Source of the DNA: Bacillota bacterium
Lineage (GTDB): Bacteria > Bacillota > Sulfobacillia > Symbiobacteriales > Symbiobacteriaceae
DNA: 64,000 bases
Direction: 5' to 3'
Assembly (NCBI GenBank): GCA_049324875.1
Contig: JBMONC010000063.1
Span: forward strand, 5,012-69,011
Shown: piece by piece, positions 10,054-28,660 of the stretch
Layout of the letters: the number at the start of each line of letters is the position of its first letter
Position numbering within the stretch: the first letter of the stretch is position 1
Position numbers and translations under genes: made by a program
The notes under the pieces: model-generated
Database searches by the model: none
What the model was told of the DNA's origin: nothing
The model's input: only the letters and a program-made list of their open reading frames with translations

Positions 10054-10252
10054 ACGATTTCGGTGTTTAGGTGAGAAAAACCTGCAGGAAAGAAGCGTTG
10101 ACGTTTAAGAACTATGCAGAGTGGCTCGTCCTGGTATCACCCGAAGGAGGCCCGAACCAGTAGATCGAATCCTGCTCATATCCCAGTCTGGTGGTGAAGA
10201 CAGAATGCTGGCCAGAGCGGAAGTGTACATTCAGTGCAGGCGGAGAATATGT

Positions 10253-10417
10253 CCCGTCCCCAGCGTGAACTGGATGACCTCCCTGTTGATCCACGTGACC
10301 TGGATACGGCCTTGGAGCGATTCGAGCGCATTAGCGCCGATCTTTACAAGATGGATGAGCTTGTGGATGGATACACCAACGAACTCCTCTCTCGATTGCA
10401 GACCATGGAGTGAGGCC
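10253..10417 (+). CDS. Small acidic helical protein (54 aa), unannotated candidate
   Basis: Below the length range of ORFs shown in the track (shortest listed is 60 aa). ATG 10253 is preceded by GGCGGAG. Translation: MSRPQRELDDLPVDPRDLDTALERFERISADLYKMDELVDGYTNELLSRLQTME. It ends 48 nt before a strong hairpin (10466-10497). GC3 is lower than in neighbours, and there is no family assignment. Confidence 0.35.
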
Positions 10418-10465
10418 GCCCTGTCGAGCGAGCCTCGCCGCAGGCCCTGGTCACCAAGAAAACAC

Positions 10466-10497
10466 CACCCTGCCCGACACGGCAGGGTGGTGTTTCA
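10466..10497. terminator. Bidirectional intrinsic terminator (ABC operon on the minus strand, small ORF on the plus strand)
   Basis: 13-bp stem ACACCACCCTGCC / GGCAGGGTGGTGT with a 6-nt loop. It is followed by TTTC on the plus strand and TTTTCTT on the minus strand, and lies 8 nt below the stop of the permease gene (10505). Confidence 0.8.
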
Positions 10498-10504
10498 AGT
10501 ATCA

Positions 10505-11332
10505 CTACTTGATCCCCGTCAGCGTAATCCCCTTGATGATCTGCTTCTGGAAGATGGCAAAGATGATCAGCACCGGCACCACCGCCATGGTCGCCCCCGC
10601 CATCACCAGCTCATACTGGTTGAAATTCTCATAGCTAAAGAACGAGAGCCCCACCGGGAGGGTCCGCATCTCCGGCGACTCGATGGCGATCACCGGCCAG
10701 AGGAAGGCGTTCCAGTTCCCGAGGAAGGTGAGGATGCAGAGCGCCGCCAGGGCGGGGCGGACGTTGGGCATGGCGATCCGCCAGAAGATGCCGAACTCGC
10801 CCAGGCCGTCGATCCGGCCGGCGTCCAGCAGGTCGCTGGGGACCCCCTCCATGAACTGGCGCATCAGGAAGATGCCGACGGCGGTGATCAGCCCCGGGAA
10901 CATGATGCCCAGGTAGGTGTCGACGATCCCCGCCTTGGTCGCCCCGATGTACCAGGGGATGATCAGCATCTCGGTCGGGATCATGATCGAGCTCAGGATG
11001 GCGAAGAAGATGACCTCCCGCCCCCGGAACTGGATCTTGGCCAGGATGTAGCCCACCAGCGAGTCGAAGAAGGCGACGCTCAGGGTGGTGGTGCTCGCCA
11101 CGATGATCGAGTTCAGGTACCAGCGGGCGAAGGGGGTCTCGCTGAAGATCTTCTGGAAGTTGGCCAGGGTGGCGGTCTCGGGGATCAGGGAGAGGGTGTA
11201 GATCTCGGTGGAGGGCTTGAAGGCGGTGGAGATCATCCACAGGAAGGGGAAGAGCGTGACCACGGCGCCCGCCAGGAGAACCAGGTAGGTGAGCGCCTGG
11301 ACCAGCTGCCTTGGGAACGGAGCCCGGTTCAT
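10505..11332 (-). CDS. CUT1-family sugar ABC transporter permease (MalG-like)
   Basis: 275 aa, six hydrophobic segments, EAA loop LDAGRIDGLGEFGIFWRIAMPNVRPAL. Confidence 0.85.
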   Translation of the reverse strand: MNRAPFPRQLVQALTYLVLLAGAVVTLFPFLWMISTAFKPSTEIYTLSLIPETATLANFQKIFSETPFARWYLNSIIVASTTTLSVAFFDSLVGYILAKIQFRGREVIFFAILSSIMIPTEMLIIPWYIGATKAGIVDTYLGIMFPGLITAVGIFLMRQFMEGVPSDLLDAGRIDGLGEFGIFWRIAMPNVRPALAALCILTFLGNWNAFLWPVIAIESPEMRTLPVGLSFFSYENFNQYELVMAGATMAVVPVLIIFAIFQKQIIKGITLTGIK

Positions 11333-11344
11333 GCGTTCACCTCC

Positions 11345-12352
11345 CTAGTACTCAAACCTCCGGGTCAGCACCTTGGACTGCACGATGGTCAGCACCAGGA
11401 TGATGAAGAAGAGAATCACCGTCGTGGCCGAGGCGTAGGAGAGGTTGAAGGACTTGAAGGCCTCCTCATAGATGAAGAGCACCAGCGTCTTGGTGGAGTT
11501 GAGCGGCCCGCCGGCGCCCTGGCTGGACATGTTCAGCACCTCGGTGAAGACCTGCAGGTAGCGGATGGTGCCGGTCAGCGCCAGGAAGACGATGGTGGGG
11601 TTGAGCAGCGGGAGGGTGATGTGCCAGAAGCGGCGCCAGGCGCCGGCGCCGTCGATCTCGGCCGCCTCGTAGAACTGCTGCGGGATCGACTCCAGCCCCG
11701 CCAGGAAGATCACCATGGAGAAGCCGAGCCCCTGCCAGACGATGGCGGCGATGATCACGTAGATCGCCTGGGTGGGGCTGCCCAGCAGCTTCTGGGCCGG
11801 GAAGCCCAGCCCCAGCAGGATCTGGTTGAAGAGGCCGCCGTGCTCCTGCATGATCCAGCGCCAGACCCAGGCCACCGCCACCGAGGAGGTGACGTAGGGG
11901 ATGAAGTAGAGCATCCGGAATACGCCCTGGAAGCGGTTGAGCCGCTGGATCAGCAGGGCGACACAGAGCCCGATGGTCAGCTGGGCCGGCACCCCCACCA
12001 GCACGTAGACGAACGTGTTGCGCAGCGACTGGTAGAAGACCTTGTCCTGGAACAGCTCCCGGTAGTTGGCCAGGCCGACCCAGGGCTGTTCCTCGCCGAG
12101 GATCTGCCAGTCGTACAGGCTGATCTGCATGGCGTAGAGGGTCGGCGCCATGCGGATGGTGACGAAGAAGAGCAGCGGGACCAGCAGGGCGCCCCAGGCC
12201 CAGAGCGCTCGCTTCTGGCTGAGGGTCATCCTCCTGACCGGCGTCGTCTGACGGGAAGGCTGCGGAACCGTTGCCAAGGCCATTCCCCCATTTCGGCGCG
12301 TCCTTCGATCGGGGCGCGATTCCCCGGGCCGTGGGGGCCCGGGGAATCGCAT
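11345..12352 (-). CDS. CUT1-family sugar ABC transporter permease (MalF-like)
   Basis: EAA loop YEAAEIDGAGAWRRFWHITLPLLNPTI and multiple TM segments. The start is uncertain: ATG 12352, 12283 (MALATV...) or 12229 (MTLSQKRALW...) are all possible, and none has an ideal SD spacing. Confidence 0.8.
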   Translation of the reverse strand: MRFPGPPRPGESRPDRRTRRNGGMALATVPQPSRQTTPVRRMTLSQKRALWAWGALLVPLLFFVTIRMAPTLYAMQISLYDWQILGEEQPWVGLANYRELFQDKVFYQSLRNTFVYVLVGVPAQLTIGLCVALLIQRLNRFQGVFRMLYFIPYVTSSVAVAWVWRWIMQEHGGLFNQILLGLGFPAQKLLGSPTQAIYVIIAAIVWQGLGFSMVIFLAGLESIPQQFYEAAEIDGAGAWRRFWHITLPLLNPTIVFLALTGTIRYLQVFTEVLNMSSQGAGGPLNSTKTLVLFIYEEAFKSFNLSYASATTVILFFIILVLTIVQSKVLTRRFEY

Positions 12353-12367
12353 CCGCTTCGGCCTGGT

Positions 12368-13684
12368 TTACTTCTTCTTGGCCCAGTAGTCGTCGAAGAG
12401 CTTCTGGACGGCGGCCTCGGCATCCTTCAGGGCCGCCTCGGGATCCTTGCCCTTCAGGATCACCTCATCCACGGCGTCGATCAGCGCCTGCCGGTCCTTC
12501 TTCTCGTCGACGAAGAAGGTGGCGTTGGCGTAGGGCAGCCCCTCGATGAAGCCCTTCAGCTTCGGATCGTTGGCGAACTTCTGGGCCACCTCCGGCCGGG
12601 CCGGCAGCTCGCCGATGGCGTTGGTCCAGCGCTCCATCACGTCGGGCTGGGTCAGGAACTGCAGGAACTTGATCGCCGCCTGCTTCTTGGCGCCCTCGGC
12701 CTTGCGGGTGATGCCGTTGGCCCAGAAGGAGGACATGGTGTAGGGCTTGCCGTTGGGGCCGACCGGCAGCGGGGCGGAGGCCCAATTGAACTTGACATCC
12801 TTCAGGGAGCCGACCCGGAAGGAGCCGTCCACGTTCATGGCCGCCTTGCCCGCCTTGAAGGCGGTGACGTCATCGGTCATGAAGCCGATCTCGCCCACCT
12901 TGTGGACGGTCTGCAGCTCCACCCACCACTTGAAGGCCTTGATCCCCTCGGGGGAGGCCCAGCTGATCTTCTTGCCGTCGGCCGACTGCGGCTCGCCGCC
13001 GGCCTGCCGGATCAGCACCTCCCGGAACCAGTTGTGCCCCTGGCCGCCGGTGTTGAAGTAGAAGCCCACCTGCTGCAGCTGGCCGTTGGCGTCCCGCTTG
13101 GTGGTCTTCTTGGCGTACTCCACCAGCTCGTCCCAGGTCCTGGGCGGGCCGGGGATGTTGGCCTCCTTCAGCAGGTCCTCGTTGTAGAGCATCGCCAGGG
13201 TGCGGACGGCGGTGGGGAGGACATAGTACTTGCCGTCCATCTTGGCCGCCTTGACCAGGCTGAAGAACTCCTTCTCGATGGTCGCTGGCGGGAAGGCATC
13301 CTCGGGGAGCGGCTGCAGGTAGCCGGAGTCGACGTAGAGCGGCAGCCAGCCGTAGTAGAGGTTGATCACGTCGGGGCCGCGGCCGGCGGAGACGGTGGCG
13401 GCCACCTTCTCGTTGTACTGCTCATAGGGGAAGGTGACGTGCTTGACGGTGATGTTGGGGTTCTTTTGCTGGAACTCGGCGATCAGCTCGTCCATCAGCT
13501 TCTTCTTGGAGGCGAAGTCGTACTGCCAGTACTCGATCTCGACCTTCTCTTCAGCCTTGGGCTGGGCCGTGTTGTTCTCGGTCTTGGCGGGTTCCTGCGC
13601 CGATTTGGTGCCCCCGCCGCAGGCGGCCAGCACCAGGGAGAGCGCCAACAGTGTGCCCAGGAGTGCCGCAAACCTCTTCTTCAT
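12368..13684 (-). CDS. Extracellular solute-binding lipoprotein, sugar (family 1) type
   Basis: Lipoprotein signal MKKRFAALLGTLLALSLVLAA|CGGG. At 438 aa its size and composition are typical of CUT1 binding proteins. It is the first transporter gene of the operon. No ABC ATPase gene is present in the operon. Confidence 0.85.
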   Translation of the reverse strand: MKKRFAALLGTLLALSLVLAACGGGTKSAQEPAKTENNTAQPKAEEKVEIEYWQYDFASKKKLMDELIAEFQQKNPNITVKHVTFPYEQYNEKVAATVSAGRGPDVINLYYGWLPLYVDSGYLQPLPEDAFPPATIEKEFFSLVKAAKMDGKYYVLPTAVRTLAMLYNEDLLKEANIPGPPRTWDELVEYAKKTTKRDANGQLQQVGFYFNTGGQGHNWFREVLIRQAGGEPQSADGKKISWASPEGIKAFKWWVELQTVHKVGEIGFMTDDVTAFKAGKAAMNVDGSFRVGSLKDVKFNWASAPLPVGPNGKPYTMSSFWANGITRKAEGAKKQAAIKFLQFLTQPDVMERWTNAIGELPARPEVAQKFANDPKLKGFIEGLPYANATFFVDEKKDRQALIDAVDEVILKGKDPEAALKDAEAAVQKLFDDYWAKKK

Positions 13685-13731
13685 CCCTCTACCCCCTGTC
13701 TGTGTTCTACAAACCCCGGTGCCGGAGCCGC

Positions 13732-15204
13732 CTATCCCTGCAGCAGGGAGAGTGCATCCGAGAGCATCAGGGATCGTGCCCTGTTCTGGGCCTCCCGCCG
13801 GGCGGTAACCGCGGCCTTCGCCTGCTCCACAGCCCCGCCGGCCGCCTGGAGCGCCCGCCGGACCTCCCGGGGGGCCGGTCCCCCCACCACCGCCCGCCGC
13901 TCCACGAAGTGGCGGGGGTCGATCGCCCGGCGGAATCCCTCCTCGGTCAGCCCGGTGGGGCGACCGAGAACCGCCTGCGCCGCTGTGTTTAGTTCGACGA
14001 GTGAAGCATCGGGCAGGGTACGCTGTTCCGATCGGAGCACCTGGACAAACCGGCTCACAACGTGGTGCGCCTGGCGGAAGGGGATCTGCTCCTCCCGCAC
14101 CAGGGTGTCGGCCAGCTCGGTCACCACCGAGAAGCCCTCCCGGGCCCGGGCCTCCAGGAGCGCCGTGTTGAAGGAAAGCTTGGCGAGGATCTCGGGCAGC
14201 AGGTCCAGCGCCCGCCGGGCCTCCTCCACCGCCTCCTCCAGCAGGGGCTGGAGGTCATCCCCCACGTCGTTGATGTCCCCCAGCGGGACGTTGTGGGCCA
14301 GGGGGAAGAGGGCGCCGGCCCGGCCCATCAGCCGGCTGAGGACCGCCCGCAGGTGCTCGATCGCCACCGGGTTTCGTTTCTGTGGCATGATGCTCGATAC
14401 CTGCACCAGGCTGTCGTCCAGCCGGAGAATATCAAACTCGTTGGTGGCCCAGAGCAGCAGGTCGGTGGTGAAGCGGCTCAGGTTGGAGCCCATCACCGCC
14501 AGGGCGGAGGCCGCCTCCAGCATGTGATCGGAGGCGGAGACGGCGTCGTAGGCGTTCTCCACCAGCCCCTCGAAGCCGAGCCAGCGGGCCACCAGCTCCC
14601 GGTCGATGGGAAAGCCGGTGGTGGTCAGGGCGGCGGCCCCCATGGGGGAGCGGTTGACCCGGCTGTAGAGCGCCAGGAGCCGCTCGGTGTCCCGGGCCAG
14701 ATTCCCCTCCACCGCCAGCAGGTAGTGGGCCAGGGTGGTGGGCTGCGCCTGCTGGTTGTGGGTGTGGGCGACCATCACCGTCTCGGCATGCTGCCCGGCC
14801 AGGGTGAGGACGGCGCTCCGGGCGGCGAGGAGCCGGTCCAGCAGGTCGAGCAGGTCCTGCCGGAGCGCCATCCGGAAGATGGCGGCATCCAGGTCGTTGC
14901 GGCTGAAGGCGACGTGCAAGTGGCCTGCCGTCTCCGCCCCCACCGTTTGCTCCACCTGCGCCTCGATCAGGAAGAAGAGGTCTTCGTAGGTGGGGTCGTA
15001 CCCCTGCTGGGGCGGGCTCTCCATCCGGTCGAGGAGCGCCCGGGTCAGGGCCCGGGCCGCCTCCGCCGGGATGATGGCGCAGCGGTTCAGCATCAGGGTG
15101 TGGGCCAGGTTGACCTCCATGATCGACCGGTAGAAGCGGCGCTTGGCCACCTCGAAGCAGGGGGAGAGGATCTGGTGAACGTAGACCCGCGAGCGGTTGG
15201 GCAT
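13732..15204 (-). CDS. Argininosuccinate-lyase-like enzyme (fumarate lyase superfamily)
   Basis: Carries the superfamily signature SSIMPQKRNP (GSSxMPxKxN) plus ArgH-like blocks (HTHNQQAQPTTLAHYLL, TNEFDILRLDD). It sits between a ROK regulator and a sugar ABC transporter, not with arg genes. Confidence 0.75.
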   Translation of the reverse strand: MPNRSRVYVHQILSPCFEVAKRRFYRSIMEVNLAHTLMLNRCAIIPAEAARALTRALLDRMESPPQQGYDPTYEDLFFLIEAQVEQTVGAETAGHLHVAFSRNDLDAAIFRMALRQDLLDLLDRLLAARSAVLTLAGQHAETVMVAHTHNQQAQPTTLAHYLLAVEGNLARDTERLLALYSRVNRSPMGAAALTTTGFPIDRELVARWLGFEGLVENAYDAVSASDHMLEAASALAVMGSNLSRFTTDLLLWATNEFDILRLDDSLVQVSSIMPQKRNPVAIEHLRAVLSRLMGRAGALFPLAHNVPLGDINDVGDDLQPLLEEAVEEARRALDLLPEILAKLSFNTALLEARAREGFSVVTELADTLVREEQIPFRQAHHVVSRFVQVLRSEQRTLPDASLVELNTAAQAVLGRPTGLTEEGFRRAIDPRHFVERRAVVGGPAPREVRRALQAAGGAVEQAKAAVTARREAQNRARSLMLSDALSLLQG

Positions 15205-16428: not shown

Positions 16429-16463
16429 CTGCGTCTCCGCCTTCCACGGTGGAAACTTTTGAA

Positions 16464-16494
16464 GGGACTTTTGAAAAGTTCTTTGGAAAGTCCC
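16464..16494. promoter_or_regulatory. Inverted repeat in the ROK / tube-like-gene divergent intergenic region (candidate operator)
   Basis: GGGACTTT (16464-16471) and AAAGTCCC (16487-16494), 8-bp arms and 15-nt spacer. It is embedded in an AT-rich stretch with the inner palindrome CTTTTGAAAAG and the direct repeat ACTTTTGAA x2. Confidence 0.3.
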
Positions 16495-16630
16495 CGGACT
16501 CCTTCCGGGGCTGTCATGCTCGGAGCAAGAACTTTCCTGAACATAATAGACTTGGCCCCCGGTTACATCAAGGATTTCGATTATTAGTGTAGAATAAGTG
16601 ATGTATGTCGACCAAGGGAGGGCATTTCTT

Positions 16631-17965
16631 ATGAAGCGCGCCTGGGTCCTGCTCCCGATCATGCTTCTGCTCCTGGCCAGCATGGGCGCCTCGCTGACCC
16701 AGGCGGCCACCGGGACCGGGGAGCCGGCCGCCAGGGCTCCCCTCGCGGTGAACGAGGAGGAGCTGCCGTCGATCGCCATCTCCCTCGATGGGGTGGAGCT
16801 GGAGGGCTTCGCCCTGGTCAGGCCGCTCGCGGTGAGGCTGCCGCTGGTGGAGGCGACCTGCAGCCCGGACGGGATTTGCACCGGGGATCTGCAGCTTGCC
16901 ATCGATGACCTGGACGCTGCGGCCGGCAGCCTGACCGACAAGGCCCGTCACGACACGGCCAAGAATGCGATCGGGAACATCCGGGCGCTGGCGGCCGAGT
17001 TGAACGGGGTCCTGGAGGTGCCCGAGGCCGACCCGGAGGGGTCGATGGAGCGGCTTTACGCGCCGGGGCAGCCGACCTATGGCAACATCACCCTGGAGCG
17101 GGCGCTGACGGGGGACACCTCCCTGCACGGCTGGTTCAACGAGACCTCCAAGGGCCAGAACATCCGCAAGTCGATCTCGATCATCATGCGTGATCGGAAC
17201 CGCAATGAGACGGCCCGCTACAACCTGTTCGAGTGCTGGCCGGTCCAGTGGAGGGTCAGCTCCCGGGACGGCCACCTGGTGGAGGAGATCACCTTTGTGG
17301 CGGAGCGGCTCGAGCGGGCGGCGGGCAGCGCGGACGGCGGCGGCGGGAGGCCTTCGGCTGTGACCGCCCTGCTGGAGGCGGACGGGAAGCCGCTGGGCAG
17401 CTTCGAGCTGGGCGGCCCGGTCGGCGGGCGGATCCGGTGGGGCGACGGCGACTGCGACGACACCGACTCCTGCACCGTCGACGGGGTGGACGATGACTGC
17501 GATGGGGTTATGGAGTGCGCCCCGGACCGCCCGGTCACCTGCGGCGACGGCGCCTGCGTCGCTCCGGTGCTGGCGGCGCTGGATGCGCTCGAGGAGCAGG
17601 TGGCGGGGATCGGGGACCGGGCGAAGCACGACATCGCCATGAACGCCATCCGGAACATGAAGGCGCGGATGGCCGAGGTGGAGAGCAACCTGGAGGGCGC
17701 CCGTCGGCCGGGGCGGACGAAGTACGCGAACATCGTCCTGAAGCGGGGGCTGAGCGGCGATGCCAGAGCAGCCCAGTGGATGAGCTTCGCCGCAGCGGGA
17801 GAGCCGTGGAAGCGGAACCTGACCATGCGGCTCCTGGGGCAGGACGGCAAGGAGATCACCCGGTTCGACATGGGGGGCGGTCCGGTCCTGTACAGCCTGG
17901 CTCCCGGCGAGGACGGGCTGATCGAGACGCTGGAGGTCCGGGTGGACCGCATTGAGATGAAGTAA
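16631..17965 (+). CDS. Secreted protein with two tandem gp19/Afp1-like tail-tube modules and Cys-rich acidic insertions
   Basis: ATG 16631 (AAGGGAGGG 10 nt upstream). Sec signal MKRAWVLLPIMLLLLASMGASLTQA. Each of the two modules ends in a tube-family-like block: YGNITLERALTGDTSLHGWFNE..RKSISIIMRD...WPVQW...LVEEITFVAERLE and YANIVLKRGLSGDARAAQWM...KRNLTMRLLG...LIETLEVRVDRIE. Each also has an inserted helix (DKARHDTAKNAIGNIRA / DRAKHDIAMNAIRNMKA). There is an acidic Cys-rich stretch GDGDCDDTDSCTVDGVDDDCDG. Confidence 0.5.
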   Translation: MKRAWVLLPIMLLLLASMGASLTQAATGTGEPAARAPLAVNEEELPSIAISLDGVELEGFALVRPLAVRLPLVEATCSPDGICTGDLQLAIDDLDAAAGSLTDKARHDTAKNAIGNIRALAAELNGVLEVPEADPEGSMERLYAPGQPTYGNITLERALTGDTSLHGWFNETSKGQNIRKSISIIMRDRNRNETARYNLFECWPVQWRVSSRDGHLVEEITFVAERLERAAGSADGGGGRPSAVTALLEADGKPLGSFELGGPVGGRIRWGDGDCDDTDSCTVDGVDDDCDGVMECAPDRPVTCGDGACVAPVLAALDALEEQVAGIGDRAKHDIAMNAIRNMKARMAEVESNLEGARRPGRTKYANIVLKRGLSGDARAAQWMSFAAAGEPWKRNLTMRLLGQDGKEITRFDMGGGPVLYSLAPGEDGLIETLEVRVDRIEMK

Positions 17966-18103: not shown

Positions 18104-18712
18104 TCACCGCCTGCAGTGGATGCGGGTGATCTTCCAGCGGTCGCCGGTGCGGATCAGGTAGACCTCCATCTCCGACCAGCGCTTCTCCCCGTCCCAGGGG
18201 CCGTGGTAGGCCATCAGGGCGGCCTCGGTGCCGACGATGTCCGCCGGACCGACGATCACCCCGTCGGCGATGTTCTGGGCGCAGAGGAAGAGGTCGAGGC
18301 CGGGCTGGTGGGTCTCCCGCCACTCCTTCAGCTTGGCCTCGACCGTGGCGATCCAGCCGGGGTGGAGGTCGTCGGCGTTCCGGTAGGTCCCATCGGCGAT
18401 CGGGCTGCCCTGGGTCTTGCTCTGGTTCATGTACCAGTCGAAAAACCCCTGGGCCAGGGCTTCCGGGGTGCCGGGCAGCCACTGCTGCCGGACCACCGGC
18501 TCCAGGGGCTTGGGGACGGGTGCGGGGACGGGCTGGGTTGTGCTCGGCTGGGCTGTGATGGGCTGGGCCATGCCGGGCTCGGTCCTGGCAGGGGCCTGGG
18601 CCTGGGTCTGGGGCGGCCCCCCGGGCGGCGGGGGCGAGGCCGTCCGGCCGCACCCGGCCAGGAGCACCGCCACAGCCAACAGAGTGGCCAGGAGCTTTGC
18701 GGAGGGGGTCAT
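18104..18712 (-). CDS. Lipoprotein of unknown function
   Basis: Lipobox MTPSAKLLATLLAVAVLLAG|C, a Pro/Gln/Ala-rich linker, then a ~130-aa globular C-terminal domain (FFDWYMNQSK...LFLCAQNIADG...). It lies directly downstream of the contractile-tail locus. Confidence 0.7.
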   Translation of the reverse strand: MTPSAKLLATLLAVAVLLAGCGRTASPPPPGGPPQTQAQAPARTEPGMAQPITAQPSTTQPVPAPVPKPLEPVVRQQWLPGTPEALAQGFFDWYMNQSKTQGSPIADGTYRNADDLHPGWIATVEAKLKEWRETHQPGLDLFLCAQNIADGVIVGPADIVGTEAALMAYHGPWDGEKRWSEMEVYLIRTGDRWKITRIHCRR

Positions 18713-18924: not shown

Positions 18925-18999
18925 CTGGTGGAGTGCCTGTATTGGGCCTGGAGGTAGGTATTTGGGCTGATTTTGGCGGCTAGATGGCGAATGGCCGGG

Positions 19000-19061
19000 G
19001 CGATCTGTGAGCTTTTACTCGCCTGTTACTCGGTCTTCCGGGGAAAAATCTCACAGATCTC
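19000..19061. repeat. Palindromic extragenic element, copy 2 (~62 nt), overlapping the stop of the last tail-locus gene
   Basis: GCGATCTGTGAGCTTTTAC - loop - GAAAAATCTCACAGATCTC. The loop shares GGTCT(G/T)CCGGG with copy 1. The TGA stop of ORF 19060..20841 lies inside the right arm. Confidence 0.7.
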
Positions 19062-20841
19062 ATGCGCCGTGGCCCACTATCGGCTTGTACAGGGAGAGTT
19101 GGGCGGTCAGGGAGGCCCTGATAGCCGAGGTGAAGGTGACAACCAGCTTCTCATCGGAGGGCCGCGGAACCGGAAGGCCGGGGGTCTGCAGCGAGATCCG
19201 GTCCGGGGCTGGGAGCGGGAGGGCTTGGGGTGGCTGGGTTCCCAGGGCGTAGACCACCAGCTCGGCCCGCTCGGCCGGCAGGGGCTCCAGCTCCAGGTCG
19301 ATCAGCCAGAGGGCCGCCTCCCGGTTGAAGGCCTGGAGCTCCCAGCTCCCGGTCCGGTCCAGGTTGCGGGCCAGGGCCGCCCCGGCCCCCGCGCCGGCCG
19401 GGATCCGCAAGGCGCCCTCGGGCGGGACTCCCAGGCTCCGGTGGGCCAGGAGGCTCCCGCCCTCCCGGCCGGCGGCCACGACGAAGAGCGGGCGGGTCGC
19501 CTGGGCACCGTCCAGCTCCACCGGCTTCTCCAGGGCGGCCCGGAACCAGAAGCCGCCGCCGGCGGCCACGTAGGCGCCCGCATCGGCGGGGAGGGTGAGC
19601 TCGGCCTGGGCCAGGGGCTGGTCCGACGGAAAGGGAGGCTCGCCCGAGGCCTCGGCCAGCCGGATCTCCAGCCGCTCCTCCGCCCGGGGAAGGCCGGGGA
19701 GCATCAGCCAGACCGCCAGCAGCCGGCGCTTCTCGGCCGGGGCCTCACCGGCGGCCAGCCGGACGGCCTGCGCCACCTCCAGCCGCTCGGTGGCGCGCAC
19801 CGAGAAGGTCGGGTTGCCGGGGGCCAGCTCCAGCCGCCGTCCGCCCTCGATCCGGCCGGCGATCCGGAGCGAGGCGCTCGCCTCGGGCGCCTCGCCGAAG
19901 GGCCAGGGCAGCTCCAGCACGGCAGGGTTGAGGGAGTCCAGGGCGAGGCTCTGCTCGGGGCCGGCGTAGGAGCGGCCCCAGGCCCCGTCCAGGTCGACCT
20001 GGACGACGCCATCGGTCAGGGAGGTGATGCGGAGCTGCACCTCGGCCTCCCCGCCGCTGCTCCCGCGCCGCCAGGCGGCGTTGATCTGGCCGGTCAGGTC
20101 CCGGGAGGTGGCGGTTCCTTCCAGCGCCATCTCGGCGGGGAAGAGCTGGGCCGGGGTGTCATCGCCCAGGGCCAGCGCCACCCGGGAGGGCAGGCTGGGG
20201 GAGCTGAGCAGGATCTCGGCATCCTCATCCTCCAGCTTTACCTGGACCGCCTGGGTGAGCACCGCCTGCTCGTGGTAGCCGGAGTAGAGGTACTTCCCCC
20301 GGCCCCCGCGGAACCGGTTCAGGTGGAGGGGCTGCACATAGGTCCGGTAGTCGCCCTCCTTGTACCGGACCTCCACATCAGCGGCGGAGCGGGCCGTGCG
20401 GACCCCCACCGCCTCGATCCGGGCCGGGGCGGCCAGCAGGATCTCCTGCCAGGCCGGGTCGGCGCCGGAGACGGCCCGGGAGGAGCCCCACTCGGGCCGG
20501 GCCAGGTTCCGGATGAGGGAGCGGGCGGTCAGCCGGATCACAAAGGCGTGGAAGAGCAGGTCAGCCGGCCCCTGCAGCCGCACCGTGGAGGGGATGTTGG
20601 CCCGCAGGAGCAGGCTCGCCACACGGGTTTGGGGCTGGTCCAGCCGCAGCACGGCGGTGGAGGCCGGCGGGGCGGCCGGCTCCCACCACCAGCCGGCCCG
20701 GTAGTACTGGTAGATCTGCTCCACGTCCATGCCCGCCTCGATCTCGCCGGGGCGGATCTGCCGGATGCCCCGGCCCATCTCGGCCTCGTAGGCCTGCCCA
20801 CGGCCGGAGGCGGCCTTCCCATCGCCTGGGTGGATCAGCAC
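19060..20841 (-). CDS. Tail-locus distal protein, unknown function (593 aa)
   Basis: GTG 20841 with GGGAGGTGA ~9 nt upstream, 6 nt after the upstream stop. High GC3, no motif I recognise. It is the last gene of the co-directional cluster. Confidence 0.55.
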   Translation of the reverse strand: MLIHPGDGKAASGRGQAYEAEMGRGIRQIRPGEIEAGMDVEQIYQYYRAGWWWEPAAPPASTAVLRLDQPQTRVASLLLRANIPSTVRLQGPADLLFHAFVIRLTARSLIRNLARPEWGSSRAVSGADPAWQEILLAAPARIEAVGVRTARSAADVEVRYKEGDYRTYVQPLHLNRFRGGRGKYLYSGYHEQAVLTQAVQVKLEDEDAEILLSSPSLPSRVALALGDDTPAQLFPAEMALEGTATSRDLTGQINAAWRRGSSGGEAEVQLRITSLTDGVVQVDLDGAWGRSYAGPEQSLALDSLNPAVLELPWPFGEAPEASASLRIAGRIEGGRRLELAPGNPTFSVRATERLEVAQAVRLAAGEAPAEKRRLLAVWLMLPGLPRAEERLEIRLAEASGEPPFPSDQPLAQAELTLPADAGAYVAAGGGFWFRAALEKPVELDGAQATRPLFVVAAGREGGSLLAHRSLGVPPEGALRIPAGAGAGAALARNLDRTGSWELQAFNREAALWLIDLELEPLPAERAELVVYALGTQPPQALPLPAPDRISLQTPGLPVPRPSDEKLVVTFTSAIRASLTAQLSLYKPIVGHGA

Positions 20842-20847
20842 CTTCCC

Positions 20848-21978
20848 TCACCTCCCGCGGATCAGCAGCGCGCCCAGGGCGACCTGCTCCCGCCGCTCCG
20901 GCCGGAGGGCGGTGGCGACCGGCAGCGCCAGCATGGCCACCTGGGCGTGGATCTCGGGGGAGAGGATCAGCCGCGCCAGCACCTCCGACTCCTCCGGCGT
21001 GGGCGCCAGCAGGGCGCGGGCGGGCAGAGCAAAGGCGACCGGGTCCTGCCGGTAGAGCGGGGTCAGCTCCAGGGCGGTCTGCCGCGCCAGGGCGATGCTG
21101 GTCAGCTGCCCCAGGCGGCTCTCCTCGGCGGGGCCGGCCGTGCGCAGCTCGGCCGCGATCGCCGCGACCCGCGCCGGGCCCAGCCGGCCCAGATCGCCCA
21201 GGGTGGTGACCGCCAGCTCCCCCAGCTCGGCGATCACCGGTTCGCTCAGTCCATCGAACCAGCTGAGGGAGAGCGCCTCGGCCGGGGCGTAGACCGAGGA
21301 GGCCGCCACCTTCAGCGGCTTGTTTCGGACGGTCAGCTCGCCGCCGATCCGGAGGATCCGCCCGCCCTCCAGCGCCGCCGGGCTCAGCCGGAACTGGCAG
21401 GAGGCGGTCAGGGGGATCTCCCACTGCCGGTGGTTCTCCGGGTTCTCCCGGATCAGGGTCACCTCGCCCACCTCCCAGGCGGTCCAGGCCAGGGAGGCCT
21501 TGCGGGCGGCGTGGGCGGCGGTGGCGGCCCCGGCGGGCCGCGCCCCGATCTCCAGCTCAACCAGGGGGAGCACCGGGCCGTCGGCGGCGGGGCCGGGCTG
21601 CTCCTTCAGCAGCGCCAGCAGGGTGAGGGCGGCCACATCCACCCGGTGAAGCTCGCTGCCGGGCGGGGTCACCTCCAGGCTGCCCCCGGGGTAGGGGCCC
21701 GCCTGGCCCAGGAGCCGGAGGGCGACCAGGGCCTTCAGGTGGAGCCATCCCCCGTCCGGGGCGGGGCGGGGGCCCAGGTCCCGGTCCTCCGGCTGGGGCC
21801 TGAGCGACTGGACCTGAACCAGGGCGGCCACCTCGGTCGCCCCCAGGGGCGGCCCCGGCGGCAAGGTGAGCTGCCCGGGCACCGCCCGCACGTGGCCGAA
21901 GAGGTCGCTCTCGGCCGAGAGCGCCTGGATCTGCCGCTGGGCCCAGGCTGCCAGATGGGCCTCCATGGCCAGAATCAT
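20848..21978 (-). CDS. Tail-locus distal protein, unknown function (376 aa)
   Basis: ATG 21978 overlaps the upstream stop (ATGA, 21975-21978), implying translational coupling. No recognisable motif. Confidence 0.55.
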   Translation of the reverse strand: MILAMEAHLAAWAQRQIQALSAESDLFGHVRAVPGQLTLPPGPPLGATEVAALVQVQSLRPQPEDRDLGPRPAPDGGWLHLKALVALRLLGQAGPYPGGSLEVTPPGSELHRVDVAALTLLALLKEQPGPAADGPVLPLVELEIGARPAGAATAAHAARKASLAWTAWEVGEVTLIRENPENHRQWEIPLTASCQFRLSPAALEGGRILRIGGELTVRNKPLKVAASSVYAPAEALSLSWFDGLSEPVIAELGELAVTTLGDLGRLGPARVAAIAAELRTAGPAEESRLGQLTSIALARQTALELTPLYRQDPVAFALPARALLAPTPEESEVLARLILSPEIHAQVAMLALPVATALRPERREQVALGALLIRGR

Positions 21979-23612
21979 GACGCGACCAGCTCCCCGTGGA
22001 TGGCGATGCTGAAGGAGAGTTTGTTGACCAGGTCGCTCCCCCGGAAGAAGAGCAGGTCGACGTACTCAGCCCGGCGGTGGAGCACCTGGGGGATCAGCGG
22101 CGGCTGCGCCTCCTCCTCCTCGAAGAGGTAGTCGGGGGTGATGCTGACGGTGTACGAGGTGTCGGTGTAGGGGGTGGCGAAGCGCACCCGGACGAACTCC
22201 CGCCCCCGGTGGCGCATCCGGATCACCGACCGGATGTTCCGGCTGCCGCCGGTCCAGTAGCCGGCGGCCAGCAGGTGCGGGTTGTTGAGGAAGTCGTAGA
22301 TCTTGGGGATCTTCAGCAGGTAGTCGGGATGGAGCCGCTCGTCGTTCTCGATGCCGAAGTGGTAGAGGATCCGGCTGAGGACCAGCAGCTCTTCCTTGCT
22401 GGGGTTCTTGTGGGGGCTGAAGGTGACCGGCTGGCCGCTGTCGCTGAAGACGGCGTTGCCGCCCACGCCGGGCTGGTAGAGGGCGGTCCCCTCCCGGGCG
22501 CCCTTCCAGCCGATGCTGGCCGGGTCGACCAGCATCCCGATCCGGTGCCGCTCCTGCAGGTCGTCCGACGGGTGGGGGTTCAGGAAGAGTGAAGGGTCGA
22601 AGGGCAGCCGGTGGATGGGGGTGGTGCCGATGGGCTCCAGGATGATGGGGGCGGTCCGGATCGGCTGCCTGCGGATGGGGGCCGTCCGGATCGGCTCGGC
22701 GTAGATGGGCGCCGTCCGGATGGGGGCGGCCCGCTCAAAGGCCCCGATCAGGTTGAAGCTCTCGGTGCGCAGGGGGTTGTTCAGACGGGTCAGGTCGGCC
22801 CCGGCTGCGCCCAGCCGGCCCAGCAGCTCCTTCATCTCGGCGTCGGCCAGGCTCAGCCGCTCCCCGGAGGCCAGGGTCACCCCCCAGTGGCTCCCCTCGG
22901 AGCGGACCTCGGCCACCGCCCCGCCCAGCACCTCCCGGACCACCGGCTCGTTCTGCTTGAAGAAGCCGGCCAGGGAGACGGCCATCTCGGCCCGGGTGGC
23001 CAGGTCCAGGTTGGGGATGATCGGCCGGACGGCGTCGGGCGGCAGGATGGAGCGGATCGGCTGCCAGCCGCCGTCATCCCGCAGGCGGCGGATGGGCAGG
23101 TCGTGGACCCGCACCGGCGCCGCCTCGTCCAGGAGCCAGTCGAACCAGGGCCGGTCCGGGGTGGGATAGGCGATCAGCCCGTCCAGCCAGGTGCAGTAGC
23201 CGTAGGTGGTCGCCCCCTCCCGGGGCGCGTTCAGCAGGGCGAGCACCTCGTCGGCCAGCTTGGCCAGGGTGACCGCCTTCTCCTTGATCTGGGGCGTCCC
23301 CACCGCTTCATCAACCAGATGATTGCTGCCGATGCACTTCTCCTGGATCTCGCTGGCGCCCACCGCCCCGTTGTGGATGTCCCCCTTGGCCACGGCGTTG
23401 GGGCTGATGTGCTGGCCCCGCACGGCGTTGGGGGCGAGCCCCTGCCAGTCGATGGGCACCCCCCGGGGCGAGGCCTGATCGTTGCCGGTGTGGTCATGGG
23501 TCAGGAGCAGCAGGAGCAGCTCCTTCTGCATGGCGTTCAGCTCTTCAGCGGTCAGTGGCTGTCCGGGTTTGAAGGTGACCGGGATCCTGGCCCCGCCCGG
23601 AAGATCGCTCAT
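21975..23612 (-). CDS. Putative tail-fibre / receptor-binding-like protein (545 aa) with internal decapeptide repeats
   Basis: ATG 23612 with AAGGAGG 8 nt upstream, preferred over the track start 23672, which overlaps the upstream gene. The N-terminal region has phased I/V..NAV/GAV repeats (ISPNAVAKGDIHNGAVGASEIQEKCIGSNHLVDEAVGTPQIKEKAVTLAKLADEV), as seen in fibre shafts. Four repeats of xxPIRTAPIx. The assignment rests on position after gpJ/gpI only. Confidence 0.4.
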   Translation of the reverse strand: MSDLPGGARIPVTFKPGQPLTAEELNAMQKELLLLLLTHDHTGNDQASPRGVPIDWQGLAPNAVRGQHISPNAVAKGDIHNGAVGASEIQEKCIGSNHLVDEAVGTPQIKEKAVTLAKLADEVLALLNAPREGATTYGYCTWLDGLIAYPTPDRPWFDWLLDEAAPVRVHDLPIRRLRDDGGWQPIRSILPPDAVRPIIPNLDLATRAEMAVSLAGFFKQNEPVVREVLGGAVAEVRSEGSHWGVTLASGERLSLADAEMKELLGRLGAAGADLTRLNNPLRTESFNLIGAFERAAPIRTAPIYAEPIRTAPIRRQPIRTAPIILEPIGTTPIHRLPFDPSLFLNPHPSDDLQERHRIGMLVDPASIGWKGAREGTALYQPGVGGNAVFSDSGQPVTFSPHKNPSKEELLVLSRILYHFGIENDERLHPDYLLKIPKIYDFLNNPHLLAAGYWTGGSRNIRSVIRMRHRGREFVRVRFATPYTDTSYTVSITPDYLFEEEEAQPPLIPQVLHRRAEYVDLLFFRGSDLVNKLSFSIAIHGELVAS

Positions 23613-23646
23613 ACCCCATCCTCCTTCTTCGCCTCGGGAGGCTGTG

Positions 23647-24120
23647 CTACGCCCCCTGCGGGGCGAAGGCAAGCGTCCAGGTCAGGGTCAGGACCTCCTT
23701 GGCCCGCACGGTCTGGTGCGGCTTGACCAGGGCGCGGTTGTAGAGGGTGGTCACCTGGCTCTCGCCCAGGGTGCAGGTCAGCATCAGCCCGGCCTCCTTG
23801 ATCAGCCGCTCCCGCTCAGCGGGGGGGAAGGAGGCCCGGAGGGTGACCACGCCCTCCTTCACCCTCACCTCCGTGACCGGGACCGGCTCCAGGCCGTCGG
23901 GGTCGTAGAGCTTGGTCAGGTCGGGGACGGTCGGCTCGGCAGAGACCCCGGCGGCGATGGCGAAGCTGGGGCCGGTGGCCGCCCCGCTGAGCAGCTGGGC
24001 CACCATCTGCCGCCCCCCGTCGACCACCGTGTTCCTCCCCTCCGACCGCACCACCGTGCCGTCGGATCGGGTCACCTCCAGCCGGACAACTCCGTGGATG
24101 GCCAGCGATTCATGCCCCAT
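23647..24120 (-). CDS. Small tail-locus protein, unknown function (157 aa)
   Basis: ATG 24120 with GAGGAGGAG 7 nt upstream, 3 nt after the upstream stop. Beta-rich sequence (HGVVRLEVTRSDGTVVRSEGRNTVVDGG...). No family assigned. Confidence 0.55.
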   Translation of the reverse strand: MGHESLAIHGVVRLEVTRSDGTVVRSEGRNTVVDGGRQMVAQLLSGAATGPSFAIAAGVSAEPTVPDLTKLYDPDGLEPVPVTEVRVKEGVVTLRASFPPAERERLIKEAGLMLTCTLGESQVTTLYNRALVKPHQTVRAKEVLTLTWTLAFAPQGA

Positions 24121-24123
24121 GGG

Positions 24124-25608
24124 CTACTCCTCCTCTGCGGTTACGGTGATGGCGACCGAATCGGTCAGCAGGGTGGCCTCGGCGAAGGCCTCCTTCCGGT
24201 GGACGGTCCGGACCTCCGCCGCCAGGTCGGCGGTGGCGGGGGAGACCTCCCAGAGGGAGAGCTCCGGCTGCCCGCCCTCCCCCTCCTCCGGCTCCTCCAT
24301 CAGGGCGGTGGCGGAGGGGTCCAGGTAGAGGACGCCCGCCAGCTTCAGCCGGTGGATCTGCTCCCGGAGCCAGTCGGCCCGGTGCTTCATCTTGCCGGAT
24401 GGGACCGGGCCGTCGCAGAGCTGCTCCTCCGGCACCAGCACGGTGAAGGTGGCCAGCCGGCGGCCGATCCAGTGGAAGCGGATGGAGGCCGGGCCGGTCT
24501 GCACCGTGGCGGGCAGGGGGCGAAGGTCGCTCAGCTCCAGCGCCTCGTCGAGGGCGGGGAGCAGTCCCTGGGGGTTGGCCCCCACCAGCAGCCGCCAGCG
24601 GGAGGTGCCGAGCCCCAGCAGCGGGGGCCAGGGGATATTGGCGATGGGCACCGGGTCGGCGGAGCCGGGGGGGCCGGGCACCTCCGGGATGTCGGGCCCG
24701 GTGCGGATCTGCTTGCTCCACCGGACCAGGTGGAAGGGGCGGGCGGCGCTCTGCCGGGGCGGCGGGTCGGTCAGCCGCCAGGCCCGGTTGTCGCCGGCGA
24801 GGCCGCCGGTGCCGTAGAGCAGGTCGGGGGCGGGAGCGCCCCCCATGGTGACCGGCCCCTGCAGGGTGGCCGGGCCGTCCAGGTCTTGGATCTGATGGTG
24901 CTGCAGGTCGACCCGGAGCGTGGCGCCGGGCGGGATGAACCGGTTGACCAGCACCAGCCGGCGCAGGTCGCGCTGCAGCAGGATCGGCAGGGTGACCGGG
25001 CGCTCCCCGGCGGTGATCTCCACCACCGGCTCCGGGTAGGTGGGCGGGGTGAAGAAGTCGCCGGGGTCGGCGTAGGTGGCGTTCTCCACCTCCCACTTGT
25101 AGTCCGAGGCGGGGGTGATCACCACCTCCTGCCGGACGGGCGGCAGCTCCACCAGCCGGGCCTCGAAGCGCTGGGCCGGATCGGCCCGGCGGGCGTAGTG
25201 GCCGGATGTGGTAAACCGGTCGTTCAGAGGACCACCTCCCTGCGGCGCTCGCTCCGGCAGGACGATCTCGTCCAGCCGCGCGTCGGTGGCGGCGGCCACC
25301 ACCTCCAGCAGGCGGGGGGCGGTGGCGGCTCCGGCGAGGTAGATGCGGGCCATCTGCCCCACCCGGTGGCGAAACTCGCCCAGGTCCTCCTCGGGCCAGG
25401 GGACCAGGGCGAAGAGCGCCGCCAGCCGCTCGGCATCGTCGAGGTCGGCCAGGTGGTCGATAAACCGGGACTGCAGCAGCTGTCTGCCGTGCCGGTCCAG
25501 CACGGCAAGGGCGTCTCCCAGCGCCCCGGTCAGGCTGCGGATCACCGTCTGGGAGCCGGCCCGCCGGTAGGCGTCGGGGAGGAAGCGGAAGACCCGGTCG
25601 GCGCTCAT
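24124..25608 (-). CDS. Baseplate wedge protein, P2 gpI / Mu gp48-like N-terminal domain
   Basis: The N-terminus RFLPDAYRR...L..AL...L......L.....D.L...DAERLAALFALVPWPEEDLGEFRHRV matches the Tail_P2_I-type pattern. ATGA overlap with the baseplate J gene (25605-25608). Confidence 0.6.
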   Translation of the reverse strand: MSADRVFRFLPDAYRRAGSQTVIRSLTGALGDALAVLDRHGRQLLQSRFIDHLADLDDAERLAALFALVPWPEEDLGEFRHRVGQMARIYLAGAATAPRLLEVVAAATDARLDEIVLPERAPQGGGPLNDRFTTSGHYARRADPAQRFEARLVELPPVRQEVVITPASDYKWEVENATYADPGDFFTPPTYPEPVVEITAGERPVTLPILLQRDLRRLVLVNRFIPPGATLRVDLQHHQIQDLDGPATLQGPVTMGGAPAPDLLYGTGGLAGDNRAWRLTDPPPRQSAARPFHLVRWSKQIRTGPDIPEVPGPPGSADPVPIANIPWPPLLGLGTSRWRLLVGANPQGLLPALDEALELSDLRPLPATVQTGPASIRFHWIGRRLATFTVLVPEEQLCDGPVPSGKMKHRADWLREQIHRLKLAGVLYLDPSATALMEEPEEGEGGQPELSLWEVSPATADLAAEVRTVHRKEAFAEATLLTDSVAITVTAEEE

Positions 25609-27104: not shown

Positions 27105-27107
27105 AGG

Positions 27108-27557
27108 TCAGTCCGCCTCCACCTGCCCCGGTTCCAGGGCAAAGCTCAGGGTCACATCGATCGGATCGGCCTTGCCGACCGGCTGCACGCTCAGCTGGAT
27201 CAGGAGGGTGCCGGGAAGGGTCGGGTCCGGGGAGACCTCCAGGCTGGTGACGGCGGCGATCCGGGGCTCCCGGCGCAGCGCCTCCCGCACGTAGGCCCGG
27301 GCCAGGGCCAGCACCTCCGGGCTGACCAGCCGGCCGATCAGCAGGTGGAGCCGGCTCCCGAAGTCGGGGTGGCCCAGGTGGGCCAGGTCGCCCTGGTAGA
27401 CGCCCAGCCGGAGCCAGATCGCCTGCTCCAGGTTGGCCCACCCCGAGACGGTGGCCAGGTCGCCCCCCAGGGAGACCAGCCGCAGGGCGCTCCCCATGGT
27501 CCGCCCGTGCTGGAGGGCCAGGTCGGTGCCCAGGTCGGGCCGCTCCATCCTCCTCAC
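27108..27557 (-). CDS. Baseplate wedge protein, GPW/gp25 family
   Basis: GDLAHLGHPDFGSRLHLLIG......LALARAYVREALRREPRIAAVTSLEV matches the gp25/gpW pattern. The GTG 27557 start overlaps the PAAR stop; ATG 27548 is an alternative. Confidence 0.7.
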   Translation of the reverse strand: MRRMERPDLGTDLALQHGRTMGSALRLVSLGGDLATVSGWANLEQAIWLRLGVYQGDLAHLGHPDFGSRLHLLIGRLVSPEVLALARAYVREALRREPRIAAVTSLEVSPDPTLPGTLLIQLSVQPVGKADPIDVTLSFALEPGQVEAD

Positions 27558-27943
27558 CCCCCGATGATGACGGTGCCCGTCCCCATCACCGTGCCCACCG
27601 GCAGGTCTGCCGGGTCGTTGCAGGTGGTGGCGGTGTCGCCCGTGCGGGCGGCGGGCTGGCCGTTGATCAGGACGCTGCTGCTGCCCAGGAGCACCTGCCC
27701 CTGGTTGGCGGGCGGCCGCTGGAAGGGGCCGCCCTGCGGGATGTGGGGCGGGCTGTTGTCGGCGGTGGAGCCGAGGATCGCCGCCGGCATTCCGCCGATG
27801 TTGACGTCACCGGAGAGGCCGCCGGAGAGGATGCCGGCGAAGGGATGGGGGAGCGGGGTCGGCGTGCTGTAGGGCGGCAGGAGCACGATGTGGGTGTCGG
27901 TAGCCAGGATCTGATCGCCCTGCTTCGCTGCGGGCATGCCCAT
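27554..27943 (-). CDS. PAAR-domain spike-tip protein
   Basis: PAAR-type motifs GGMPAAILGS and NGQPAARTGD, plus KQGD near the N-terminus. ATG 27943 (GAAGGAGG 9 nt upstream) is preferred over GTG 27952, which abuts the SD. Confidence 0.8.
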   Translation of the reverse strand: MGMPAAKQGDQILATDTHIVLLPPYSTPTPLPHPFAGILSGGLSGDVNIGGMPAAILGSTADNSPPHIPQGGPFQRPPANQGQVLLGSSSVLINGQPAARTGDTATTCNDPADLPVGTVMGTGTVIIGG

Positions 27944-27957
27944 CGGCAGCACCTCCT

Positions 27958-28656: not shown

Positions 28657-28660
28657 GCAC

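Follow-up and report, generated by a model that had tools for sequence, protein, structure and literature searches.

We examined a 64,000-nucleotide stretch of DNA from a member of the Symbiobacteriaceae (assembly GCA_049324875.1, contig JBMONC010000063.1, positions 5,012 to 69,011), hereafter called the window, and in particular one gene at 16631..17965 on the + strand. The gene runs from an ATG at 16631 to a stop codon at 17963-17965, and its 444 codons plus stop encode a product identical to NCBI MFZ5816337.1, which is recorded as 'MAG: phage tail protein [Bacillota bacterium]' (MAG, metagenome-assembled genome). The coordinates and every peptide string given in an earlier, sequence-only reading of the same DNA were found in the open reading frame (ORF) list and the translation. 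G+C content at third codon positions (GC3) is 0.92, as is usual for coding sequence in a window of ~70% G+C. A Shine-Dalgarno sequence (AAGGGAGGG, 16614..16622), read directly from the DNA, ends 8 nt before the ATG, and a GGGAGG-like element is kept at the orthologous loci. Farther upstream, a -10-like hexamer, TAGAAT (16590..16595), is unchanged in an intergenic alignment of six genomes in which the flanking sequence has diverged, and it is a putative promoter element. Because the region between this gene and the adjacent ROK-family regulator gene holds the invariant TAGAAT upstream of the ribosome-binding site, the gene appears to be its own transcription unit. Moreover, it is the sole gp19-type gene that a local hidden Markov model (HMM) search detected within the window. 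Features of the protein are given below with their coordinates on the + strand.

The encoded protein appears to be exported. Residues 1 to 25 (MKRAWVLLPIMLLLLASMGASLTQA, 16631..16705) have the n-, h- and c-region (n/h/c) layout of a signal peptide by the heuristic scoring used for all such calls here: an MKR start with two basic residues, a hydrophobic 12-mer with a mean Kyte-Doolittle value of 2.73, and a TQA-A site, with cleavage predicted after TQA. AlphaFold modeled the segment as a lone helix at residues 7 to 25. A tripartite N terminus with an AXA-type site is shared by 15 of the 16 homologs, even at identities as low as 30%, and the single homolog that lacks the layout resembles a truncated gene call. 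The equivalent cleavage-type sites in orthologs are AEA-R, AMA-E, AQA-K and VQA-A. Neither a lipobox nor a wall-anchor domain was found in the protein by Pfam scan. Moreover, the protein bears hallmarks of an extracytoplasmic location, namely conserved Cys pairs, a (D)DDCDG motif, DxDGDGxPD loops and an acidic mature chain (68 D/E versus 45 K/R). With its n/h/c signal peptide and A-x-A-type site, the protein is a predicted Sec (signal peptidase I) secretory protein, and the clear signal peptide noted in the sequence-only reading is borne out by the heuristic and conserved.

The mature protein is built from two tube-type modules. Both PF06841 (Phage_T4_gp19; E=1.1e-26, 93.7 bits versus a cutoff of 28.2) and TIGR02241 (E=2.6e-21, 75.9 bits versus a cutoff of 62.4) matched the protein in two stretches, so that the C-terminal gp19/Afp1 signature named in the sequence-only reading was borne out by HMM. 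The two halves are homologous to one another because module 1 aligned with module 2 at 27% identity over 153 residues (BLASTP, E=6e-20), and the local HMM scored module 1 at 82.9 bits and module 2 at 27.9 bits. Module 1 opens with N-terminal tube strands at residues 47 to 76 (16769..16858; E47-52, E55-64, E67-69 and E72-75; predicted local distance difference test score [pLDDT] ~80-86) and closes with a C-terminal tube half at residues 140 to 231 (PGQPTYGNITLER ... LFECWPV ... VEEITFVAERLE; 17048..17323), which is the best Pfam/TIGRFAM stretch of the protein (local HMM independent E value [i-E]=2e-32; pLDDT 77-89). A linker at residues 232 to 244 (17324..17362; pLDDT <50; mean ortholog identity, 12%) leads to module 2, in which N-terminal tube strands were modeled by AlphaFold at residues 245 to 269 (17363..17437; E245-250, E253-260 and E266-269). 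The C-terminal tube half of module 2, at residues 358 to 444 (17702..17962), is the second Pfam stretch and is more degenerate than that of module 1 (local HMM i-E=1e-13).

Structure prediction agreed with the sequence comparison. The AlphaFold model had a mean pLDDT of 67 and a predicted template modeling score (pTM) of 0.53, with beta cores at pLDDT 77-89, and the order of elements in both modules was strand-strand-[insert]-strand-helix-strand-strand-strand. Each modeled module has the two-sheet beta-sandwich and single flanking helix by which the tube fold is recognized. Foldseek matched the model to Afp1/5, Pvc1/5, Streptomyces contractile injection system (CIS), AlgoCIS and Hcp tubes with probability 1.0 and E values of ~1e-5 to 1e-3, and the template modeling (TM) score normalized to the target was 0.5-0.64 for the Afp, PVC, CIS and Hcp tubes. 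A profile built from the single-module relatives described below likewise matched solved CIS tubes (9r9h_B, E=2e-9; AlgoCIS 7adz, 5e-9; Anabaena 7b5h, 1e-8; Pvc1; and Afp1). That alignment fell into two parts, one over the N-terminal strands and one over the C-terminal half, and the segment equivalent to the N-terminal strands of module 1 aligned with strands 1 and 2 of the solved tubes. The top Foldseek match of the full model was chain 7qg9_G of the phage T5 tail tip, which we take to be the tandem-tube-domain protein p140; the match, with a poor global TM-score of 0.20/0.27, provides a precedent for the trimeric pseudo-hexamer that the sequence-only reading thought tandem tube domains could form.

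Each module is interrupted by an insertion at the same beta-hairpin tip, between tube residues ~35 and 43 of the solved CIS tubes by profile alignment. In functional CIS inner tubes the hairpin concerned, between strand 2 and the K.PG...NITLKRG strand, is short and unbroken. The inserts measure 63 residues in module 1, ~88 in module 2 and ~130 in single-module relatives. By AlphaFold and alignment, the module 1 insertion (residues 77 to 139, 16859..17047) contains a C77-x5-C83 pair, of which C83 is unchanged across tandem orthologs, and a helical hairpin (H85-99/H104-127) that carries a T-type motif helix, KARHDTAKNAIGNIRA (residues 104 to 119, 16940..16987), in which H107, I114 and N116 are invariant. 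In module 2, alignment delimits an acidic Cys-rich segment with six cysteines at residues 270 to 310 (GDGDCDDTDSCTVDGVDDDCDG...C...C...C; 17438..17560), followed by a helical hairpin at residues 311 to 357 (17561..17701; H311-324 and H330-357 in the AlphaFold model; insertion HMM i-E=1.6e-15) that carries an I-type motif helix, RAKHDIAMNAIRNMKA (residues 330 to 345, 17618..17665), conserved across orthologs. C275 and C309 are invariant, C296 and C304 are kept wherever the acidic segment exists, and residues 270 to 305 are disordered in the model. The Cys-rich acidic helical insertions had been proposed for equivalent positions in the two modules, and both the positions and the conservation of the helix motifs K104-A119 and R330-A345 stood. 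The stretch G271-G292 had also been called Ca-binding-like, and it is indeed acidic, Cys-rich and conserved in orthologs, but its likeness to a Ca- or metal-binding motif was not significant (PF11617, E=0.39 on a relative).

Conservation within the protein peaks in the motif helices, which are 85-95% identical in closer orthologs, against 45-52% for the C-terminal tube halves and 33-38% for the N-terminal strands. The T-type helix follows the pattern [KR]HDT.KN.IGN[IV]RA and the I-type helix follows [KR]H[DE]IAMN[AS]IRN[IM][KR]A, and most of 16 family members have one of each, sharing one insert in the single-module proteins and distributed one per module in the tandem proteins. The order of the two is swapped in P0008 and P0009, module 2 is degenerate in P0006 and P0007, and P0013, P0015 and P0016 have two T-type-like copies. 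The (D)DDCDG motif occurs in every family member and the DxDGDGxPD loops in most orthologs. In the AlphaFold model of one single-module relative, P0011 (pLDDT 79.8), the 130-residue insert forms four long helices at pLDDT 86-95.

The family that carries these inserts is small. Only 16 relatives emerged when 5.8 billion clusters were searched by a word index, of which nine are tandem proteins of 398 to 455 residues from Bacillota MAGs and seven are single-module proteins of ~280 residues, several of the latter from Symbiobacteriaceae MAGs. A homology search with the insertion alone returned one fragment and missed even known family members; the profile proved to work in local HMM searches, which confined the insertion to a Symbiobacteriaceae-like family of ~25 cluster representatives, with weak partial matches beyond it in P0046, P0049, P0088 and P0098 and in the fragment P0275. 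In P0275 (71 residues on a 563-bp contig), two KHD..KN motif helices come straight after the signal peptide, without intervening tube strands, and the contig then ends; the helical element may therefore occur in another arrangement or alone. A short exported gp19 protein, P0028 (180 residues), bears a small acidic DPDDDGDG insert exactly at the same hairpin tip, and the loop at that tip seems, on sequence, to be a recurrent site of Ca-binding-like additions. Finally, the motif [IV]-x-[IV]-[ND]-E-[ET]-G-[VLM]-P recurs ahead of module 1 in the tandem proteins (in the window at 16745-16768, residues 39 to 46, AVNEEELP) and is also found in single-module inserts and in some inter-module linkers, having been lost from the linker of the window protein.

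Export and tandem duplication extend well beyond that family. When 1.84 billion representatives were searched exhaustively with a profile, 1522 matched at E<1e-3, 14 of them at E<1e-30, and we analyzed 162 proteins made up of the closest ~150 cluster representatives and the family members. By a crude heuristic, 107 of the 162, and over half of the 150 closest representatives, have a signal-peptide or lipoprotein-like N terminus; 34 of the 162 have two tube modules. The proteins come from many phyla, and the signal-peptide-bearing tandem protein is thus not the singular case for which it had been taken. Signal-peptide columns of the query profile do not account for the high share, as a profile stripped of them still returned 56-89% signal-peptide-like proteins per score bin, and the tube domain begins ~20 residues later in the proteins with a signal peptide. 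Exported forms are spread over Bacillota, Planctomycetes, Hydrogenedentes, the candidate phyla radiation (CPR), Chloroflexi and others, and the exported state is scattered phylogenetically among classical tubes. Second modules group according to lineage, which implies three or more independent origins of the tandem state among exported forms. Further examples from species-representative genomes are a Sericytochromatia lipoprotein, tandem proteins with signal peptides from Hydrogenedentes and a Dehalococcoidia gp19 protein with a signal peptide. By size, the exported orphans fall into signal-peptide or lipoprotein forms of 165 to 190 residues and signal-peptide-bearing tandem forms of ~290 to 340 residues. 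Larger architectures were also seen. Proteins of ~615 to 630 residues from CPR MAGs (L015:806-2683 and L019:8744-10639) combine a signal peptide, DUF5667, a gp19-type domain and a C-terminal Kazal domain; Pfam confirmed both DUF5667 and Kazal, and the helical DUF5667 region has an acidic Cys stretch, CDDSD...GGTDCDDRD. Proteins of ~1400 residues with signal peptides from Kapaibacterium MAGs (L022:7148-11386 and L023:7241-11398) have at least one gp19-type module each, and their relative P0089 has two.

How such a protein might function is suggested by the combination of its parts. We tentatively favor, at somewhat under an even chance, a tube-fold scaffold that is exported, forms rings, displays a helical element and stands outside the structure of the neighboring tail particle. 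A stand-alone, expressed chromosomal gene would give rise to a product that is exported, most likely by Sec, cut after TQA and folded outside the cytoplasm. That product would be an exaptation of the gp19-type inner-tube fold of T4 and of extracellular contractile injection systems (eCIS), with two beta-sandwich modules per chain, and the long beta2-beta3 hairpin tip of each module would bear a helical hairpin with one [KR]HD..N.I.N helix. Disulfides and acidic, putatively Ca2+-binding loops would stabilize the inserts. Three chains might lie side by side in a pseudo-hexameric ring, in the manner of tube-fold proteins, and the two helical hairpins of each chain might pair into a four-helix bundle, as they appear to do within one insert of the single-module relatives. 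If the bundles stand out from a single axial face, the assembly would therefore be a discrete crowned ring instead of a stacking tube; layers of Pvc1, for comparison, stack through beta-loop intercalations (PMC12546770). The repeated, independent tandem duplication fits retained ring assembly because ring geometry would then matter, and the clearly extracellular Kazal domains fused to some exported relatives count for export. The conserved helical element, and not the tube fold, would be the working surface and would bind a metal, a ligand or a partner in the envelope or outside the cell.

Several points weigh against this proposal. The ring, the trimer stoichiometry, the pairing of hairpins and the block to stacking are all inferred, and the last presumes that the insert-bearing hairpin is the inter-layer intercalating loop of stacked tubes. 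The model of the protein has a pTM of only 0.53 and was built on an alignment of 9 sequences, and the motif helix matched none of the known metal- or ligand-binding families among Pfam and PDB sequences. Signal peptides were called throughout by n/h/c heuristics, and the n-region of several orthologs contains RR, such that export might proceed by Tat. The tandem form adjoins a tail cluster in every genome with a readable flank, and a link between the two is possible. Finally, the gene is the fastest evolving of its neighborhood, with ortholog amino acid identities of 41-53% versus 57-87% for neighboring genes, a level at which synonymous sites are saturated. Such rapid change of the scaffold agrees with a surface-exposed role, possibly one in conflict, but it may merely reflect relaxed constraint on a surface protein.

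One alternative involves the tail cluster. It occupies 19060-34547 on the - strand, convergent with the gene, and as the sequence-only reading had it, its end at 19060 is 1.1 kb away. The cluster comprises genes for a sheath (33123-34547), a weak FII-type tube (32718-33104) and a DNA_circ_N-like protein (30262-30891) and a tail-fiber-like ORF (21975-23672), as well as a gp44-like hub, a gpV spike, PAAR, gp25, Baseplate_J and several ORFs without a family match. Family scans found no capsid or packaging genes in 19060-34547. By its gene content, the cluster resembles a tailocin or a tail of P2/Mu type that has been domesticated, and related MAGs keep it at 57-86% amino acid identity. Upstream of the sheath gene are a flavin reductase gene and then genes of tyrosine catabolism (homogentisate dioxygenase, FAA hydrolase and HPPD). 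The exported protein could be an accessory of this headless tailocin-like cluster, acting as a ring for self-protection by decoy, for masking of a receptor or for passage through the envelope, which we consider unlikely. In support, the tandem gene is 1 to 2 kb from the distal end of the cluster in the window, L001, L010 and L012, which is to say wherever the flank can be read; contigs end too early in L002, L003 and L011. Moreover, the last tail ORF (19060-20841, 57-64% identity) is the next most divergent gene of the neighborhood, the rest being at ~62-87%, and the divergence of these two genes could reflect coevolution.

Adjacency to the cluster may, however, simply be inherited. The tandem orthologs share a whole neighborhood in which an ABC transporter, a solute-binding protein, a lyase and ROK precede the gene, and a small - strand gene and the distal end of the tail cluster follow it. 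The gene adjoins the tail cluster solely within this one syntenic group of related MAGs, and because both flanks are conserved, proximity to the tail cannot be separated from synteny. The gene is on the opposite strand from the cluster and has its own conserved putative promoter, and the slot between them varies: the window has a predicted lipoprotein gene there (18104-18712, - strand; LLAGC lipobox and weak DUF3828 match), as L003/L011 and L010 have a DUF3828-like lipoprotein, but L001 has a DinB-like gene. Furthermore, the cluster's own tube gene is of the P2 FII type by a weak match only (PF04985, E=0.009) and lacks the gp19 signature, as had been noted earlier. Single-module family members sit among unrelated housekeeping genes, and neither they nor the other exported relatives examined have tail genes within 5 to 10 kb. 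P0187, P0182, P0030 and P0165 are also orphans by context, and exported relatives are orphans among housekeeping genes in every context that could be read. Among 96 flanking ORFs at eight distant loci, the 25 commonest Pfam families included no recurrent tail family, a count that a single weak tail gene could escape. The earlier suggestion of a functional tie to the adjacent tail locus was therefore not upheld.

Classical relatives show what a tail context looks like. The gene for P0186, a relative of 146 residues without a signal peptide, belongs to a canonical eCIS operon that contains Pvc16_N, CIS_tube and gpV genes, two sheath genes and three gp19 genes. A strict rule by which classical proteins belong to operons and exported proteins are orphans was rejected, however, as P0172 is of classical length, lacks a signal peptide and belongs to an orphan gp19 pair. 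The genes around that pair (L029:10001-10939) are metabolic, and the 10 kb upstream contain neither sheath nor baseplate genes; cytoplasmic orphan tube genes therefore exist too. In one MAG (Betzabe_MAG065), ROK, a tandem gp19 gene and a lipoprotein gene occur on both of two contigs, L010 and L011 (tandem proteins P0002 and P0003), a doubling that may reflect strain heterogeneity, a mixed bin or true duplication. In the window, an AT-rich operator-like block, ACTTTTGAAGGGACTTTTGAAAAGTTCTTT (16455-16484), contains a palindrome, ACTTTT-G-AAAAGT (16467-16479), is conserved in six genomes and adjoins the start of the divergent ROK-family regulator gene (ATG 16428, - strand). The block is a candidate ROK operator and could also influence the gene for the exported protein. 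Two very long + strand ORFs, 10121-14527 (1468 residues) and 18973-22131 (1052 residues), are antisense to real genes and were rejected as genes; their GC3 is low relative to the true frames, and thus they are artifacts of high G+C content.

The protein might instead be a secreted binder that works as a monomer or at least not as a ring, with the tube fold as a stable beta-sandwich carrier and a metal or small ligand bound by the four-helix H/D/N element, for instance to store or scavenge metal. The helical element is indeed the best-conserved part, with invariant His, Asp and Asn. Its modeled four-helix form resembles the metal-storage protein Csp (6r01; target-normalized TM 0.75) and PMEI bundles, but the matches have E values of 0.04 to 0.2, and these generic four-helix bundles were not taken as evidence of homology to the P0011 insert. 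The acidic Cys-rich loops weakly resemble the putative metal-binding motif PF11617, but the match, on a relative, is at E=0.39 and was treated as noise; the insert alone otherwise returned nothing significant from Pfam, and nothing significant from PDB sequences, where a tau fragment at E=0.011 was likewise treated as noise. No metal-homeostasis genes neighbor the loci of the family members, and repeated independent tandem duplication is more easily explained by ring geometry. We regard this explanation as improbable.

Extracellular polymerization, with the resulting tubes or filaments as matrix or biofilm structural material, seems a poor prospect. The tube fold tends intrinsically to polymerize, and one cluster in an extracellular metaproteome from Accumulibacter granules had a gp19-domain protein as its most abundant member (PMC12019908). 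For that granule protein, however, neither a signal peptide nor a non-CIS origin was shown (PMC12019908). Moreover, inserts of 63 to 130 residues, on the hairpin that we read as the layer contact, should hinder stacking. Finally, that the gene is an ordinary cytoplasmic tail-tube gene or decaying prophage remnant, with the signal peptide an artifact of annotation or start codon choice, has the database name 'phage tail protein' and a tail cluster close by in its favor but is hardly credible, given an intact ORF with a strong Shine-Dalgarno sequence and conserved promoter element, a hydrophobic N terminus in 15 of 16 homologs, signal-peptide enrichment that survives removal of the signal-peptide columns, Cys pairs, acidic loops and Kazal fusions in relatives that point outside the cell, and scores far under the CIS1 and CIS5 equivalog cutoffs.

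The window protein may be one example of something more general. We raise as a possible but doubtful extension that CIS tube proteins have repeatedly been exapted into Sec-exported or lipid-anchored orphans that form rings independently of sheath and baseplate, a widespread and undescribed class to which the Symbiobacteriaceae-like family would have added a four-helix H/D/N active site. Such rings could be, for example, a pore or scaffold in the envelope or an extracellular decoy against phage tails or tailocins. A role as a sporulation channel was dropped, as the exported class is found in nonsporulating phyla too. On present sequences, what is specific to the Symbiobacteriaceae-like family is the helical insert and not export or the tandem state. 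No description of Sec-exported gp19-type proteins was found in the literature, of which few subscription journals were covered, and the absence is no proof. The many relatives that carry Sec or lipoprotein signals, are solitary, are repeatedly duplicated and are fused to extracellular domains suggest a second, unexplored extracellular life of the tube fold. Should these proteins form envelope rings or pores, or hamper tails arriving at the cell, they would amount to a new kind of envelope structure or extracellular defense and would also offer a ready-made, self-assembling and secretion-compatible scaffold for engineering. More immediately, the label 'phage tail protein' on exported orphans can mislead predictors of prophages, tailocins and eCIS.

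Tube-fold proteins such as gp19, Hcp and Afp1/Pvc1 are known as cytoplasmic building blocks that polymerize on a baseplate inside a sheath. The window protein shares family and beta-sandwich-plus-helix fold with the tubes of CIS and T4 (Afp1/Afp5, Pvc1/Pvc5, Alg1, All3324, Streptomyces CIS and T4 gp19), and module 1 aligns at 76 bits with the C-terminal half of a tube protein from a bona fide eCIS operon. Unlike those tubes, however, it has a signal peptide, two modules and a hairpin insert (63 to 130 residues across the family) and lacks a sheath and baseplate operon. Moreover, it scores 30.2 bits against the 220 bits of CIS1_fam and 48.3 bits against the 260 bits of CIS5_fam, the equivalog models of CIS inner tubes. 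We conclude that the protein belongs to the gp19/Afp1 superfamily by sequence and fold and departs from functional inner tubes in its equivalog scores, operon context, heuristically predicted location and interrupted hairpin.

Other known systems resemble the protein in part. The tandem tube-domain proteins, T5 pb6 and p140 and the N-terminal domains of gp27/VgrG, form trimeric pseudo-hexamers and, like the window protein, have two tube-fold domains per chain with the second more diverged. These proteins are parts of a virion or spike and are assembled in the cytoplasm, however, and the TM-score of 0.20/0.27 does not imply an alike interdomain geometry. Hcp of type VI secretion systems (T6SS) is of the same fold class (Foldseek 6bdc, 8gra and 7yw0), a likeness at the level of fold only, as the Hcp family (PF05638) had no match to the protein at E<=1 in the Pfam scan. 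Hcp proteins with fused extension domains exist, and the idea of a ring-forming tube protein as a carrier is common to both, but Hcp leaves the cell by the T6SS and not by a signal peptide, and its extensions are C-terminal where those of the window protein are inserted in the hairpin. The other exported orphan gp19-type proteins share with the window protein the signal peptide, the orphan context and the repeated tandem duplication and differ from it by the [KR]HD..N.I.N insert, which they do not have.

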